From NCBI GenBank assembly GCA_010356995.1, contig ML996707.1, positions 1-64,000 on the forward strand: a stretch of DNA of 64,000 nucleotides, written 5' to 3'. Shown one piece after another: positions 39,243 to 61,000 of the stretch (its first letter is position 1; each line of letters opens with the position of its first letter). Source of the DNA: Trichodelitschia bisporula. Taxonomy: Eukaryota. The notes under the pieces were generated by a model. The model did not search any database, had not been told where the DNA came from, and was given only the letters and a program-made list of their open reading frames with translations. The position numbers and the translations under genes were made by a program.

Positions 39243-39860
39243 CCTATGACTCGCCACGACGTCGCCGGTCACGAGCGGTGCATTTCAATAAATATCGGTA
39301 AATTCATCCATTGTAGAATTGCAGCCAGTTGCAGCCATCATCGTGGCCAACTGACCAGTAACACCGGTATCTCTCTTTAACGAGCCAAACCGTACGCCTA
39401 CATCCGTCCTTCATCCGTCCGAAAGGCAATACGTCTATCACCTGTACCACCATAACCCATCGAGACGTTGAGGTCTACATATCCACCGCCGCCTTAAAGC
39501 GGCTCCACAAAGAAACAGCACCAAAAAGGCAAACAAAGAGCGTAATGTGAGCAACAGAGTGCTATGAGCGACAAAGCGGTGCTGGTGTAGTGGAGCGACA
39601 AAAACACTGGGGCAACCTCGAACACCGTACAATCTATGTGGAGGTTTGTGCATGGGAGCGAGGACGGGAACGACGACGGGGAGACGGGAACGGGAGGTGC
39701 GGCAGGGAGGACAGAGGGCAAGGAAAACGTGAGCAAGGCAGGATCGTGCAAGACTGTAACTGTGATTGTGCAGTGACTGGATTGCAGATATGGATGGCTA
39801 CATAACATCGGTACGACAAGGTCTATGATGTTCGTGGTGCAGGTGCTCTGCTCAGGTGCT

Positions 39861-39895
<35 letters not shown>

Positions 39896-39955
39896 CGGTG
39901 GTGATGAGTGGGGTGATGAGTGGGGTGATGAGTGGGGTGATGAGTGTGGTGATGC
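39861..39955. repeat. G35 homopolymer followed by (GTGATGAGTGGG)n 12-bp repeats
   Basis: 35 consecutive G at 39861-39895, then about 4 copies of the 12-mer. Confidence 0.9.
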
Positions 39956-40154
39956 GGGGGGCTCGGGGCGGGGATAGCAGCTGTCGCGGGGATAGCAGTC
40001 GTTGCAATGGCCGTCGCGAAAGGCAGTCGTCGCTATGTCGTCGTGAACGCCGGCGAGGCCTGGCGACGTGACCACTCGGTGTTGGCTCTGGCCTGGGTGC
40101 GACAAGGCAGCCGTGACAAGCAGCCGCGACAGCAGCCGCGGAGAACGGACTCGC

Positions 40155-43100
40155 CTAAGGCATGATTTGTCCGCTGGCACCGCCTGAGGAAGTTAGTACT
40201 AGCCAAAATGCATCAGCGCCAGCGAGTCATCCTCGTCCGGCAGCCCTATCCGCCGTTAGCAAGCCACTACGTGCCAAAAATTTCCAATTTTTTTGTTGCG
40301 TCAGGCAGTTATCAGTGGCGTGCTACGACGGAAGAGGCCATATTCCGCTCCATACATACCGGTTTGGCGCTTGATCTGCTCGCGCGCCCAGCGGGCTGTT
40401 TGGTTGGTGCGGTCCGAGTAGTCGCGGTTCGCACGCGCCTCTTTGACCATTTGCGACAGCCAGTCCTGGCGGAAGAATTCGGTGAACTCGCCGTTGGGGA
40501 ACGCCTCGGAGATGTCACTGTGCGGTTAGCGTTGCTGTTCATGTATTCAAATCCGGGGACTCACCCAATCACGCCCATTGATGACCGCAGCAGCGCCTCC
40601 GTGCGGTGCATGTCCTGGTACACAATGTGCAGCAGGCCGAAGATATGCTCCACGTACGGGGCCATTGCCGCTGCCTTGCCTCCTGTCTTCATGGCCACAA
40701 TCGCGCCGTCCCATGCGTCCATGATGCCCTCGCGCAGCGACGCAACGTACTCGACCATCTCGTAGCCGTGGTCTGGCCCGGCGTTCACTAATGACGCCTG
40801 CTGCAGCACCTGCGCAACGATCGGCAGATACGCCTCGAAGTGGCCGCCGATCGCCTGCGCAATGTCGCCGAAGCACTGCAGGATAGCCGGTTTGAATTGC
40901 TGGTTGAGCGCCTGGCTCTGTCTACGGTCAGCATGGATTACGGAAAGGATAGTCCACCCCACCTGCAGGTCCTGCAGAAGCCGGTTCATGAAACCGTCGC
41001 ACCACGGCTGCACCTGCTCGTTCAGCGCGCGCGTGATGTCGCTGACGAGCCCGATCGACATCGAGCACAGGCTGGGCTCGTCGTGGTTCTCGAGGCCCTT
41101 GTAAAGATACGGCGAGAAGGCTTCCATGTACGGTAGGAAGTTCACCTCGAGCGAATTCGCGAGCGCGCCAATAGCCGCAAAAACAGTCTCTGGCACGCTC
41201 GACTTGGCGTTGCTGCTGTTAAGAAGAGCAAGCGACGTGCTCATGATGCGGTCCGCGAGCGGCTTGATCTCGCCCTCAAGACGCTGGATGATGGCCATCA
41301 TGACACTCACAAGGCTCGTCTGCATATCATCGAGCAGATTCTTGTCCTCGAAGCTTACAACCTGCTGGCGCAGCGGGATCGTCTTCTCGAGGCGTTCGAG
41401 GATGACGGTCGACAGGCTCGCCACCATCTGCAAGCTGTCATTCGCCGCGTTAGTGACGAAAGCGTTGAGCACCTCATAGGCGGCGGTGCGCAGTGTGTTG
41501 TCGGTGTCGGGTCTGCATCGTTAGCACTATTATCAGCGGGGAGACGCGTACTTACCGCTCCGTCACCTGCAGCAGATGCGTCAGGCTCGCCTCAAAGTGC
41601 GGGGTCAGGGCGTTCTGCTGGCTGCCGGGCTCGCCCGAGAAGCGCTCCGCCAGGTTCATCAACGCCCAGCAGCACGACGACGCCATCTTTGGGTGACTCG
41701 ACAGGCCCTCGAAGAAGGCGGTGATCAGCGGCGCGAGCAGCATGGGGTCGACCGACTCGGAACACAATTCGCAGATGCGACCGAGCGCGTACGCGGCCGA
41801 GTCCTTGACCTGGACGACGCTGTCGCTCATCGTGGCGATCAGCACGGGAAGCGCTTGCTTCACAATGGGGTCGAGCATCTTCTCGTCCGGCCCCTCAAGG
41901 ATGGCGCCGAAGGCCGACACTGCGGCGTCGCGGAAGTGCCAGTCGTCAGCGCGCAGGTGCGTCTCGACGAACCCGAGCACCGGCTGCACGATGGTATTCC
42001 CGACGGCCTGGGCCCACAGCTGCAGGCACTGGTATGCGGCGCGCGAGACGTTGTACTCGTCGTCGGTCGCGTCCTCGTCCTGCTTCGTCAGCAGCTCGAG
42101 AAGCACCGGCACGACTTCAGTGGTTGCGATGCGCGCAAAGTTGAAGTACTCGCGCAGCTCGGTCGAGCCCTCCGCCTGGGCCTGGAAACGTCAGTATTGG
42201 CGCACTACCACAAAAAAAGTATCGCTCACCTGCTGGTTGTCATCCTCAATCGTGACCTCCTCCTCGCAGACCGTGCACCAGAACTCGACGGCGAGCTTCG
42301 CTACGTCTTCCTCCTCGCTACGCATGCCCTGCACGGTCAGGCCGAACAGCGCCTTCTCCATGTAGAATTTCATCTTGTCATAGTACAGGCTCATGATGCG
42401 GTTCAGGCAGCCATACGCGCCCTGCTGGATTCGCGAGTCATCGGCCTGCGTAGCCTCACAGATGACCTGCATGATGTAATTGCGCTCGCCCTCGTTTTCA
42501 AAGTTGGATCGTACAAACTCAAGCGAGTCGCTCAGCGCAGTGATGGCAGCATTACGCACGTCATCGTTCTGTTCCTCCTTACGCGCACCCTGGATGACGG
42601 CGGTCAGGATGGCGTTGGAGTGCGCTGCCAACGACTCGCGCAGGTCCTGGTCCTCCGCCTCGCAAATGTAGCCGATGGTCGTCAGCGACGCCTGTTTCTG
42701 GTGAGCAGCGCCGCTACCCACGCTCTCGACAAGGGTGGGCATCAGCTCCGGCCACATGTTGCGGGGGATCTCGATGGCGGCAATCGCAGAGATGAACTGC
42801 GCCGCAGCCTGACCCGCACGGGAGTCATTGGATGTAAGCGTCTTGAGCGCAAGTGCCTTGACATTCGTCTTAACGGAACCGTCGATCTGCGTCAACCAGC
42901 GCTCCTGCACCTGGCGCAGACGCATAAGGTTGCGGGCGGAAAAGGAGTTTTTCAGCGCGAGACCCGCGGCGACACGGATATTGGGGCCGGCATCATCGTT
43001 GGCGAGCTCGTGGGCGAGCCGCGAGAGGTAGCCCGACTACGAGGCAGGGTCAGCATTGGGGAACCTAGAGAGGGTCAAATGACGTACAAAGTCGGCTTCA

Positions 43101-43233
43101 GCGGCCTGGTTGAGTTGAGTCTCGGACCTCAAGCGCACTTCGGCATCTGGAGGCGGTCAGCAGGTAGCGACGGAAAGGGACGGAAGAACAAACTCGGTGA
43201 GAGGGTGCCTTCGAGCACGGCGTTGACGTCCAT
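40155..43233 (-). CDS. KAP95: Importin subunit beta-1 (karyopherin beta 1), multi-exon
   Basis: MDVNAVLEGTLSP...; ENEGERNYIMQVICEATQ, AVEFWCTVCEEE, DWHFRDAAVSAFGAILEGP, KPAILQCFGDIAQAI. Last intron 40184-40359 (TACTAAC branch) gives C-terminus KRQTGGASGQIMP*. Confidence 0.96.
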
Positions 43234-43901
43234 GATGATAGATGGGGGCGTGTTCACCGTCTTCAGGCAGTTGAAAGGGGAGAATATGTGGGTGGGGGTG
43301 CAGAGGTGTGTCTCTAGGATACGAGTTTAGGCGGGAGGTTGAAATGTGTACATGCAACCACGAGCACCCGTGATCAAAAGGGGAATGTTGACGGTCGACG
43401 GTCGAAGGAGGGAGGGGAAAGACGAAGTCTGGTGTAGTAGGGATTGTAAAAGGCAGAGAATCAAGAAGCACAAAGATCAGTGCGGGAAGCGAGAGCGTAA
43501 AGTTGAAGCAGTAAAGTGTAGCTGTGGGGTTGCTGGAGAGTTGGAGAGTTCGTTGTTGAGGATGGAGGTGTAAAGAGAAGTGCGTTTCGGGGGTGTGGGG
43601 CGGGGCGGGTGAGTTGAGAGAGAGTCCTGCAAAAAGGTCTTGGAAGCTGGAAGGCACGGCCGGGTTCAGGCAGCGAACCTGCGGAAAGAAGGCAGGCGCG
43701 GTGAGTGTGGGCGGCGAAGACGTCAAGGGCTGTCTGCGATTTCCCTTAGGGGGGTAGAGATGAGGAGGGGGGGGGGGGAAAGGAAGGGAGGGGGGAGGGG
43801 AAAAGCAGTCCAAGCGGATAATAGGCAGTCAGGCAATAATAATGGACGGTGTGGGAGCAGCGACTACTGCGTACGCACGTGAAGCTCCAGGCGCGCGTCT
43901 C

Positions 43902-43977
43902 CACACACACACATACACACACATACACACATACACACATACACACACACACACACACATTCACACACACACGCACA

Positions 43978-44016
<39 letters not shown>

Positions 44017-44032
44017 GCGCACACACACACAC
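43902..44032. repeat. Long imperfect (CA)n microsatellite (~130 bp)
   Basis: Directly visible; lies upstream of importin beta. Confidence 0.95.
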
Positions 44033-44748
44033 AACAGTTGCCCATATCAATGCATCAACAATGTTCCCTTGATTCTACGGATTACTGAGTACTGAATCTT
44101 ACTATAAACTACTACCGCCATTCTGTCATCTGTCTCTCTGATTCGCTCCGACACTCTCCGCCTCTTGTCTTCTCATGTGCTGACAGTCTACTGTACACAC
44201 TACTACGAGATCGCTCACGTCGTCGAGGCAATAATGGAGACGAAAGCAGTGAGTCAACCCTCAAAAAGTGGGTGCCGACCGCAAGCCCGCCCACACACAC
44301 TGCAGACGCCAGATGCCAGACGCAGACCGCAAATTTGAACCTCTGCCCTGCGCGGCTCTCTGTGTGGGGTGGAGCCTAACCTAGCCGACGAACGAAGTAC
44401 ATCCGTATAGCGGGCCTATGGGAACAGCAGCGTATGCTTCGGTAGACAAATAATAGCGCGCAAGTCGCCGAACCCAGCCGCATGTCCTTTGGAGGGGTGA
44501 TTGGCTGTGTCGCATAGGAGGTGCTTCTAGAAACCCACTGGTTATTCACTTCTTTTGTCTGCCATTTGTTGCCCTGCGCGCATGTGTCCGGGCGAATATG
44601 CTCCTCTCCATCAGACCGCCGCAGACCACCGCAGACCGTCGCCATTAGGTTCCACAGCATTATGTACTCTAGAAACAAACGAGTATCCCGAAATGCTTCC
44701 CTTCGCTAGACGCCGTGTATCCGTGTAGACAGATGCGCTCCTACAAGA

Positions 44749-58054: not shown

Positions 58055-61000
58055 CTACGCCTCCACCGCGGGCCCGATCTCCTGCGCCCGCTCGATGAAA
58101 TCTGCGCTTGTCTTCAGATTCTGCGCACCGCTCAACGCCTTGGTCATCGTGGTCTCGCTGCGCTCGCGCACCAACCGCCGCAACGCGTTGATCAAGAACC
58201 CGGAGAAGATCTCCAGCGACCACGAGTCCGGCAGCAGACTCAGGACCTGCGCTGTCAGTGGGGCACAAGAGTAGACGACAGACTTACGTATGCAACGTCA
58301 AACCACCCCCCAAACCGCTCGAGCAGCTCACCCGTGCGCTCCATGCGGTCCCCCACATCCTCAATCCGCAGGAACTCGTGCAGCAGGAAGCCAAACAGTT
58401 TCGCCTGTTCGTCACGGGACGCTTGCTCTCGCGGCACCGCGTCCGACGCCGTCCCAAAAATGCTCGACCCGCCACGCAGGCAGTAACTGATCGCCATGTC
58501 AAAATCGCCCAGTCCGTGCGTCAACAGTCGGATCGCCTCCTCGTGCCGCCCCTGGCGACCGTTGAGGATGATCATCTCCGGCACGAGCTCCTTCTCGAAC
58601 GGCTGCAGCCGCGTGAGGATCGCAAGGACGTCGTACGACGACGCCGCGCCCTGGTTCCCACCCAGCAGCTGAAGCAGGCGCAAACGACTGTGCCACCATT
58701 CCGACGGCACGGCATTGTCAATTATGAACTGGCGATACGTCGGCTTTGGCGGCCGCAAGGCACGGTAAGTCTCGTAGGTTGCGTCCAACATGGCACGTGA
58801 CTCGACGGAGCTGGTAAGCTCGTTCAGGACGATGTCGAGGTAGTACGAAATGAGCTCATTGATGTGTTGCGGTTGCTACCATCGTTAGCGCTAGGTAGAC
58901 TGAGCAGGCCCGGACCGAAGATTGAGCTACTACCCCCACGGAGACGGAGGTCCGGTATCTTGGAGCGATTTTCGAGAACGAGGGTATAGCTCAGGACACG
59001 TACGGCATGCACAACGACATTGTCGAAACACGGCTGGCAATTAAGGACTTCAGAGCTGCTCTTCCTTGTTTTCGGCGACCAAAAGAACGTAGAACTGACC
59101 AGTACGGTAAATTTTCTCGATAACCAGCTTTGTCGGGAAAATCTTTAATGTACTGGACGGTTCTACGCTCTTATGGTCGCCGAAGACAAGGAAAAGCCGC
59201 TCGCTGTAATCCTCGATGGCGAGCTTCATCTGGGAATATCTTTGTGCACGCCGTACGTGCCCTGAATCGTCCCTTCGTTCTCGAAGATTGGCCCAAGTTA
59301 TCGGATTTCCGTCAACCAGGGGGGGGGGGAGCTCAATCTTCAGCATGAGCGGCTTGAGCAAACACACCTTTTTGCCAAATACCAAATGCTCTAGATAGTC
59401 CTTGACCGCGCCTGGTGCCCGTGCGCGCAGCGTATGCAGTGCGTCCGCTGGCGACCACGTTACGCGCGAGCCGTCGTCGGCGAAGAGCTGCACACCCAGC
59501 TTCGGATTGCGGTTCGCCAGCCATGTGCCGTACTCTTCGACCAGCCGGCGGTCGCGTAGCTTCCCGAGGTAGCGCCGCATCTCGTTCTCGCCATCGAGAA
59601 ACTCGCCGCCGAGGTCCTCCTCGCCGTCGATGATGCGCCGCCACGTCGCCAGCACCTTGCCCGACATCTTCCTGCTCTGGTAGAGCCGACTAAGTATGAA
59701 TAAACGCTTGTGCTGCTCGAGCAGCGCAATCGCCCGCTCAAAACAATCCACCCCACCGTCGACCACGCCGTTCAGCTCTGCACGGATCGACCCCGCGGTC
59801 GCCGGCCCGCGCGTCTTACTATCAAGAAGCAGCAGCACGCGCAGCAGCGCTGCGTCAACCGTGGGGAAGACGTGCGCGCCGTCGGTCACGCTTGGGTTGC
59901 CCTTTTTGCGACGCCAGAACAGCAGGTAGCGCTTTATGAGGTGCAAGATGTTGTCGCCGAACGGTCCGGATGGATCGTCCGGGAGTGCACCGATGTCGTT
60001 CTGCTGCAGGAAGCGCTCAATCAGCCCCTTCAGGCCCCCCTGCAGCCATATGCCGTCCGGCCCCTGCAGGATCTCTTCGCGGATCTTCGGCAGGAAGATG
60101 AGCGCCACGCGTGGGTCAAGCTCGCTTTCGACGAGAATGTCTTCGGTTGAGCGGATCTCGCGCTCGAAAATAATGATGCCAGAAGCGGTGCGTAAAATGA
60201 GTTCGACAAAGAGCAGCGTTGCGGCCTTTTGGCGGATGTAGCTGAGCGTGAAGAACTCCAGCTCAGTCGTCGACTTCACGCCGCGCAGGTCGTTCACGAC
60301 GGTTTCGATCAGCGGCCGCTGCGGGTCTACAGCTGCCTCGCCCTCGCCTAACGTGAGACGCGCGTCTAGCTTGAGCACCATCGGATTGCGCACAATCCAG
60401 CGTACGGTATCGCCCGTCCACAGCAGCAGATTTGTCTTGACCTTGCACAGCCGACGGATGTACTCCAGCTCGTCGCTCTCGCGCTTCGCCGCCGATGGGC
60501 TCTCGATAGGCTTGTCGAAGAGGCGCATGCTCGTAAGGGCAAGCTTCTGGCTCATCTCGGGCATTTCGAGCTCCCTCTTCATCGTGACTGACCGGATGCC
60601 CAGCGACTGGGACTCTGCCGCCGTGCCTACCTCGAGCCATTCCTTCTTAACACTCTCCTCTCCCTGGTCAACGTCCCACCGCTGGATTTCAATCGCCTTC
60701 GCATCGTCGCGGCGCACTACGGCCAGCACGTACCCGGGCTCTTGTTCTTCGCCCTCAATCTGCGATGCCGCTAAATCAATGCCAGAACCGTCGACGACCA
60801 CAGCCTCCGGGTAGCTCGAGAACTCGATCGTGCCGCGTGGAACCTCACCGTCCATGTTGACGAACATGCCGACGCCCGGGTCGGCTGGCGCAGTGCCCGT
60901 AACGAGCAGGAACTCGGACGAGTTCGGCGACACAATCAGCGGCTTCAACGGAACGTAGTTCTTTGGGAGAGGAACCGGAGTCACGCTTAGAGAGAGATTC

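Follow-up and report, generated by a model that had tools for sequence, protein, structure and literature searches.

The last intron of the importin-beta gene

The importin-beta (Kap95) gene of the fungus Trichodelitschia bisporula ends with an intron that differs from all the others of the gene, 176 nt in length vs 43-51 nt for the other six, and that carries two sets of 3' splice signals, one of them buried in a strong predicted hairpin. The first-pass annotation of this DNA had proposed that the hairpin could act as a switch between alternative C-termini of the main nuclear import receptor. The question raised by the locus is whether this is so or whether the structure plays a simpler and permanent role. 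We have examined it by comparing the gene with assembled transcripts, with the proteins of its orthologs, with related loci and with the remainder of the window, i.e., the whole stretch of 64,000 nucleotides (64 kb) that was analyzed.

The exons defined by spliced contigs (Table 1) translate into a product of 873 residues; on the minus strand its reading frame opens with a start codon near 43233 and closes at 40157-40155 with the stop codon. The best database match of this product was the importin-95 of T. bisporula (P0001), with 95% identity for a query in which a 45-nt intron was left unspliced, and importin-beta orthologs numbered in the hundreds among the matches. The last intron interrupts a glycine codon after its first base. 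The sequence TACTAAC, nearest to its end, agrees as the branch point in use with the joint seen in the contigs.

Table 1. Location of the genes, introns, splice signals and predicted RNA structures in the 64-kb window.
Feature	Positions	Strand	Evidence or remarks
Importin-beta/Kap95 mRNA	39917..43482	-	Spliced contigs; 8 exons, 7 introns
Last exon, coding part	40155..40183	-	Conserved tail GASGQIMP and stop codon
Last Kap95 intron	40184-40359	-	176 nt; skipped at the joint in both runs
Used 3' splice site, AG of CAG	40184..40185	-	Joint in both runs
Used branch point TACTAAC	40192..40198	-	Branch A (intron position 167) 9 nt from the 3' end
Second small hairpin (predicted)	40218..40241	-	24 nt; downstream of the main hairpin, ahead of the true branch point
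Hairpin of 96 nt (predicted)	40243..40338	-	Intron positions 22-117; -41.6 kcal/mol, z -6.61
Decoy (proximal) AG	40246..40247	-	10 nt past the decoy branch A, near the hairpin base
Main stem, 3' arm	40249..40268	-	Intron positions 92-111; holds the decoy branch point
Decoy branch point GCTAAC	40255..40260	-	Branch A at intron position 104
Second branch-like motif CTGAC	40300..40304	-	Lies in a hairpin internal loop; branch A at intron position 59
Main stem, 5' arm	40314..40332	-	Intron positions 28-46
5' splice site GTATGT of the last intron	40354..40359	-	Sequence, contig joint
Kap95 intron	40518-40564	-	47 nt
Kap95 intron	40918-40962	-	45 nt
Kap95 intron	41513-41555	-	43 nt
Kap95 intron	42182-42229	-	48 nt
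Kap95 intron	43037-43087	-	51 nt
Kap95 intron	43147-43193	-	47 nt
Vps3-like intron	58876-59367	-	492 nt; protein contiguity of P0121 and orthologs

The 3' end in use

The RNA evidence consists of assembled contigs from two public runs, which belong to one sample of one study. Although RNA is only a guessed label for these runs, seven GT..AG introns are spliced out in their contigs, which indicates that they derive from transcripts. Both runs remove exactly 176 nt at the last intron, producing the tail ...GGASGQIMP. The depth found in the two bins that cover the intron corresponds only to their share of exon, so that intron sequence is covered by zero contigs. Neither use of the proximal acceptor nor a retained intron was seen in the contigs of the two runs of this sample, from which assembly drops rare isoforms.

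The proteins of other fungi point in the same direction. The tails of the orthologs are like the distal form, for example ...GGASGQMA (P0035) and ...GGGAGQMA (P0004), and the tails that would result from the proximal acceptor or from retention are unconserved among them. We could reproduce exactly the three tails given by the first-pass annotation, of which the one produced by the proximal AG, if it was used, would be ...GLPDEDDSLALMHFG. The deposited protein of T. bisporula (P0001) ends in the intron-retained reading, indicating that its gene model missed the last intron. The deposited importin-95 model can thus be corrected, since transcripts and orthologs both back the distal splice and the conserved tail.

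A predicted hairpin that encloses decoy splice signals

More than half of the last intron belongs to a single predicted hairpin. It rises from a 4-bp helix at its base through a main stem of ~20 bp and then a UGCC/GGCA helix to an apex rich in A/U, and more than 30 bp are predicted in total. Shuffled versions of its 96 nt gave -23.3 +/- 2.8 kcal/mol and none of the 200 was as stable (0/200), and the 176-nt intron in full gave -68.0 kcal/mol (z -4.35). In a scan of the whole 64 kb by 100-nt windows on both strands (n=12,782), the hairpin took rank 2 in stability after GC correction, a type of score in which palindromes count as structured regardless of whether the RNA fold matters. The small hairpin located downstream appeared in free and constrained folds alike. 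Considering these predictions, we infer that the main hairpin probably forms in vivo.

The anatomy described by the first-pass annotation was accurate in nearly all its parts. The splice signals, both arms, the UGCC/GGCA pairing and the limits of the stem-loop are all where it had placed them, and the predicted fold does show the proximal branch point inside the 3' arm and its AG at the base of the stem. The exception is the cap, described as AAAAAUU paired to AAUUUUU. This 7-nt inverted repeat can be read in the DNA, but the minimum-energy fold pairs CAA with UUG instead.

The palindrome extends in the DNA from the base to the apex, which speaks for a palindrome that arose as such in the DNA and against a stem that was built stepwise. 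The sense strand folds more stably than the antisense (-41.6 vs -34.6 kcal/mol, antisense z -4.0), and this advantage of 7 kcal/mol is due to G-U pairs; the stem has three of them vs one C-A mismatch, a count too small to demonstrate that selection acts on the RNA.

Two branch-like motifs and one AG are enclosed in this structure. In the predicted fold the GCTAAC decoy is paired within the stem save for one bulged A, and the A of the decoy AG is placed in an internal loop of 2 nt, with the G in the basal helix. The distance of 10 nt between the decoy branch point and its AG can be compared with the 8-13 nt of the other six Kap95 introns, and the first 114 nt of the intron resemble a complete intron by themselves. 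For the decoy branch motif, the mean predicted probability of being unpaired went from 0.17 at 15 C to 0.20 at 70 C. Taken together with the fold, we consider that the hairpin is probably what silences these decoy signals.

The same intron in related loci

We searched for relatives with a degenerate pattern designed on the motif conserved immediately upstream of the intron, and retrieved 118 loci from metagenome contigs. The tail was contiguous in 71/118, i.e., either there is no intron there or the locus is a transcript, and in 47/118 a GT follows the same split glycine codon. This share of related loci with an intron at the identical codon position (47 of 118) indicates that the position is ancient. 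Using the conserved tail plus a branch motif as criteria, the intron could be delimited in 41 of the 47 (L013, L063, L025, L031, L100 and L107 were omitted), giving 33 distinct sequences. For two groups (L044, L073) the delimitation agrees with intron-less loci that have the same flank. These orthologous last introns measured 56-241 nt, with a median of 108. The penultimate intron, in the 25 loci in which both introns were measurable, had 48-60 nt in 22/25, was absent in 2/25 and had 116 nt in 1/25.

As for the structure, we could find neither a comparable fold nor a similar sequence in any of the 33 distinct orthologous introns. The z value of the complete intron (100 shuffles) was -4.9 for the window and -3.5 for the intron of L074/L082, which carries a small hairpin of its own, and the other 31 sequences had values of -2.3 or weaker. 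The nearest introns (L020, L077, L085 and L101) were alignable over the first ~30 nt only, and in these four there was no homologous stem, with a mean column identity of 53%. Searches with blastn-short and nhmmer of the intron against the 118 loci detected no similarity at the orthologous place. Pleosporales-like relatives showed no excess of conservation in the intron either (identity of 0.43 vs 0.42 at third positions). Conservation of the hairpin in relatives was lacking, with 0/33 distinct introns carrying it. As far as can be judged from these sequences, a long last intron is usual for the clade and the structure is not, and the hairpin appears to be lineage-specific rather than old. Relatives splice introns of 97-241 nt that have no comparable structure, which implies that length alone needs no hairpin.

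The related introns also provide a reference for the decoy signals. Interior CTRAC motifs were found twice in the 33 other orthologous introns vs 6.4 expected by shuffling, a weak statistic (P about 0.04) obtained with introns that are mutually related. The intron of the window contains 2 interior CTRAC vs 0.23 expected, both within the hairpin. When the full decoy (branch motif plus YAG) was considered, the depletion in the 33 orthologous introns was not significant (0 vs 1.06 expected).

A second foldback intron in the window

The top-ranked hairpin of the 64-kb scan was located at 59081-59180, within a Vps3/TRAP1-like CNH-domain gene on the minus strand. In P0121, the T. bisporula protein, and in its orthologs the sequence runs without a break from ...HLVFGKK into QPQHINEL..., from which a 492-nt intron is deduced. 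This intron is almost wholly one foldback (MFE -256.4 kcal/mol, z -16.65), which matches itself in inverted orientation over 434 nt with 74% identity and leaves unpaired 8 nt at the 5' end and ~29 nt, including the branch point, at the 3' end. No sequence similarity was found between this 492-nt foldback and the importin-beta hairpin. Finding a larger foldback that fills another long intron argues for a general trait of the DNA of this genome, and not for a device specific to importin-beta.

The two foldback introns of the window suggest that long introns are here short introns plus a palindrome. We put forward, tentatively and as a possibility that has the odds against it, that single-copy DNA palindromes are a recurrent and undescribed route of intron growth in this ultra-short-intron fungus. 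If true, one rule would cover both the importin-beta hairpin and the 492-nt foldback of the Vps3-like gene, and splicing by intron definition would gauge structural and not linear distance. Were it to apply genome-wide, the pattern would bear on how the spliceosome measures very short fungal introns and on how introns grow.

We have also considered an origin of the palindromes from the exon next to them, by inverted duplication, and discarded it, as DNA-level similarity did not exceed that of shuffles in either gene. The Vps3-like intron has a weak protein-level match with the preceding exon (E 0.034). A distribution of intron lengths obtained ab initio for the window (49 non-overlapping candidates, several of them in verified exons) was too noisy and was abandoned.

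A proposed permanent structure and its alternatives

The explanation that we favor, to which we assign a probability of about 0.55, is that a lineage-specific DNA palindrome, constitutively folded in the RNA, loops out excess length and masks the decoys. The palindrome would reside in an ancient and already long intron and, once transcribed, would fold at once in the pre-mRNA into a very stable constitutive hairpin with two passive jobs. One would be looping out surplus length separating the 5' splice site from the branch point. This distance, 166 nt when measured linearly, becomes ~71 nt in the predicted fold with the hairpin looped out and ~48 nt when the 24-nt second hairpin is also counted, to be compared with 34-38 nt in the other six Kap95 introns. 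The other job would be to hold the two branch-like motifs and the well-spaced AG in double-stranded form, unusable by SF1/U2, so that splicing would always proceed to the distal TACTAAC...CAG and give the conserved C-terminus. The hiding of a competing branch point by the stem is a reasonable assumption, and the whole looks like a permanent mask and not a switch.

The main rival to this explanation is a palindrome that is merely tolerated, a piece of extra DNA that has no effect on splicing and whose decoys the splicing machinery would pass over even in single-stranded form. We regard this as unlikely, although several of the observations fit it well: the hairpin is missing from 33/33 orthologous introns, relatives manage to splice 97-241 nt in its absence, palindromes unrelated in sequence are found in other introns, and one G-U/A-C mismatch alone (3 G-U vs 1 C-A) tells selection on the sense strand apart. 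A neutral piece of DNA does not account so easily for decoys whose consensus and spacing match those of introns in use, for the scarcity of branch-like motifs elsewhere within the relatives' copies of this intron, or for a hairpin geometry that obeys the rules of zipper stems (see below).

A different proposal concerns the origin of the palindrome and is compatible with constitutive looping out and masking, namely that a mobile intron-associated repeat, an introner-like element or a MITE, landed in the intron. The introner-like elements of Dothideomycetes are described as exceeding ordinary introns and as having stable predicted structures (PMC3609843), and the complete intron that the first 114 nt seem to form would fit with such an insertion. 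We consider it improbable, as there were 0 further copies in the 64-kb window or in the 118 related loci, the position of the intron is ancient and not a new gain, no target-site duplication was apparent by eye, and the two foldback introns of the window are unrelated in sequence.

That the stem is opened by heat, by a helicase or by a bound protein, exposing the proximal branch point to give a new C-terminus, now seems very unlikely. The anatomy would permit it, with two complete 3' ends of which one is sequestered, and choice of the 3' splice site controlled by RNA structure is documented for yeast APE2 (Meyer et al., 2011, as cited in PMC9198270). The contigs of the two runs from one sample hold the distal junction only, and the distal tail is the conserved one while the alternative tails are not, so that the switchable C-terminus of the first-pass annotation found no backing. 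Its suggestion of a thermosensor fared no better, because the pairing of the decoy is predicted to be unchanged, with the stem closed, from 15 to 70 C. The annotation was right in that no TPP aptamer is present: the Rfam covariance models of riboswitches, snoRNAs and miRNAs gave 0 matches at E up to 10 over 4227 families. To this we may add that the hairpin is unconserved in the available orthologous introns and that a similar foldback exists in an unrelated gene. Finally, that the excised intron is the precursor of a small RNA is likewise very unlikely: fungal snoRNAs are often intronic and an imperfect stem of ~40 bp is a plausible substrate for Dicer, which could generate a milRNA, but the same Rfam search had 0 matches, the hairpin is unconserved in relatives and no C/D or H/ACA box arrangement could be recognized by eye.

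Comparison with known systems

Fungal TPP riboswitch introns are cases in which an intronic RNA structure hides or exposes splice signals. The importin-beta hairpin differs from them in having no aptamer, as judged from the Rfam models. The yeast RNA thermosensor of APE2 (Meyer et al., 2011, as cited in PMC9198270) is similar in that an RNA structure near alternative 3' splice sites is reported there to decide which AG is chosen. The importin-beta stem is instead located upstream of the branch point in use, is predicted to remain unmelted between 15 and 70 C, and has no alternative product in the contigs of the two runs analyzed, both from one sample.

Two other systems are known from filamentous fungi. 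The introner-like elements described by van der Burgt et al. (2012), and summarized in Collemare et al. (2013; PMC3609843), come from the same fungal class, and they resemble the present intron in being long (here 176 nt vs 43-51 nt) and in their stable predicted structure (here z -4.35). According to that summary they are multi-copy and mark new intron positions, whereas the importin-beta hairpin has no second copy in the 64-kb window or the 118 loci and its intron occupies an ancient position (47/118 loci). The internally symmetrical (stw)introns of the Hypoxylaceae are described with terminal inverted repeats of 45-55 nt, sequence families and nested introns (Fekete et al., 2021; PMC8469720). 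They share with the importin-beta intron a strong internal symmetry, a possible double-stranded RNA and, in that description, the absence of flanking target duplications. In contrast, the arms of the importin-beta hairpin have ~20 nt and are internal, and sister copies were not found in the window or in the 118 loci. Of a nested intron the contigs could give no sign, since they display the finished splice product only. Wherever testable, the hairpin fails the features that define introner-like elements and Hypoxylaceae stwintrons in these accounts.

In the literature that we searched on T. bisporula, and on hairpins or alternative splicing in introns of fungal importin beta, nothing was found about this intron. 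The closest known systems, as far as the sources cited here describe them, are the zipper stems and the stem-occluded cryptic sites of yeast (PMC12350175, PMC2536676). Zipper stems were described in introns of S. cerevisiae with RPS17B as the prototype (Rogic et al., 2008; PMC2536676), in which a stem of this type is reported to promote splicing efficiency. They have been defined as stems of at least 6 bp formed in vivo and supported by DMS, with a linker of 42-85 nt and distances no shorter than 10 and 20 nt (Rangan et al., 2025; PMC12350175). The importin-beta hairpin is preceded by 21 nt of intron (it begins at position 22, with the main arm at 28) and ends at position 117, and TACTAAC begins at position 162, leaving a gap of 44 nt. 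The total linker of 21 + 44 = 65 nt is inside the range of 42-85 nt, and the hairpin keeps both minimum distances. In all these positional aspects the predicted hairpin behaves as a zipper stem and, like zipper stems, it would be a constitutive structure. The differences are in the host, here a filamentous Dothideomycete with ordinary introns of only 43-51 nt, and in the stem itself, an almost complete DNA palindrome that arose recently and whose fold is predicted only. In yeast, intron stems occlude cryptic splice sites as a statistical trend (Rangan et al., 2025; PMC12350175), and the importin-beta intron differs as a single case with a predicted masking. Within these limits, the last intron of the importin-beta gene would provide a clean example, beyond budding yeast, of a hairpin with the geometry of a zipper stem that buries decoy splice signals.

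Importin-95 gene model and its surroundings

The T. bisporula importin-95 protein was deposited (P0001) with 883 aa and a C-terminus that comes from reading through the retained last intron (40184-40359). Transcripts and orthologs support instead a protein of 873 aa with the conserved tail. We have found the same intron-retention error in the models of several importin-beta orthologs, in which the tails that follow KRQ start with GM or GK. Simple repeats are found on both sides of the gene (see table).

Simple repeats flanking the importin-beta gene, and the foldback intron of the Vps3-like gene
Feature	Positions	Strand	Remarks
G/C homopolymer, and CCCACTCATCA-like units in tandem	39850-39990		just beyond the mRNA contig end (39917)
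Long CA/TG microsatellite	43880-44050		upstream of the importin-beta gene
Foldback intron, 492 nt, Vps3/TRAP1-like CNH-domain gene	58876-59367	minus	boundaries predicted from the annotated protein and its orthologs

A foldback intron in the Vps3-like gene

The most stable of the 100-nt structures of the window is located in the predicted intron of the Vps3-like gene, nearly all of which is taken up by a single foldback (MFE -256 kcal/mol, z against shuffled sequences -16.65). The self-inverted match extends over 434 nt with 74% identity, and a run of 12 C lies inside the intron. Its sequence is unrelated to that of the importin-beta hairpin. When translated as read-through, the 5' arm (59053-59367, minus strand) gave a weak match (BLASTP E 0.034) to the last part of the exon that precedes the intron, a resemblance that is probably due to chance, since the similarity of arm and exon at the DNA level was not above that of shuffles.

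The last importin-beta intron in relatives

Across the Dothideomycete-like metagenome loci (L001-L111) the last intron of the importin-beta gene measures 97-241 nt, about double the length of the penultimate intron (~50 nt). The Pleosporales-like members have in common a stretch of alternating TATATAT, which lies 15-25 nt upstream of their branch point. Overall identity of the intron was 0.43, no higher than the 0.42 found at third codon positions. Two loci of one Pleosporales-like lineage (L074 and L082) have their own hairpin of ~12 bp in the orthologous intron (whole-intron z -3.5), and none of their relatives has a hairpin there. The L074/L082 hairpin is another sporadic palindrome in the same importin-beta intron.
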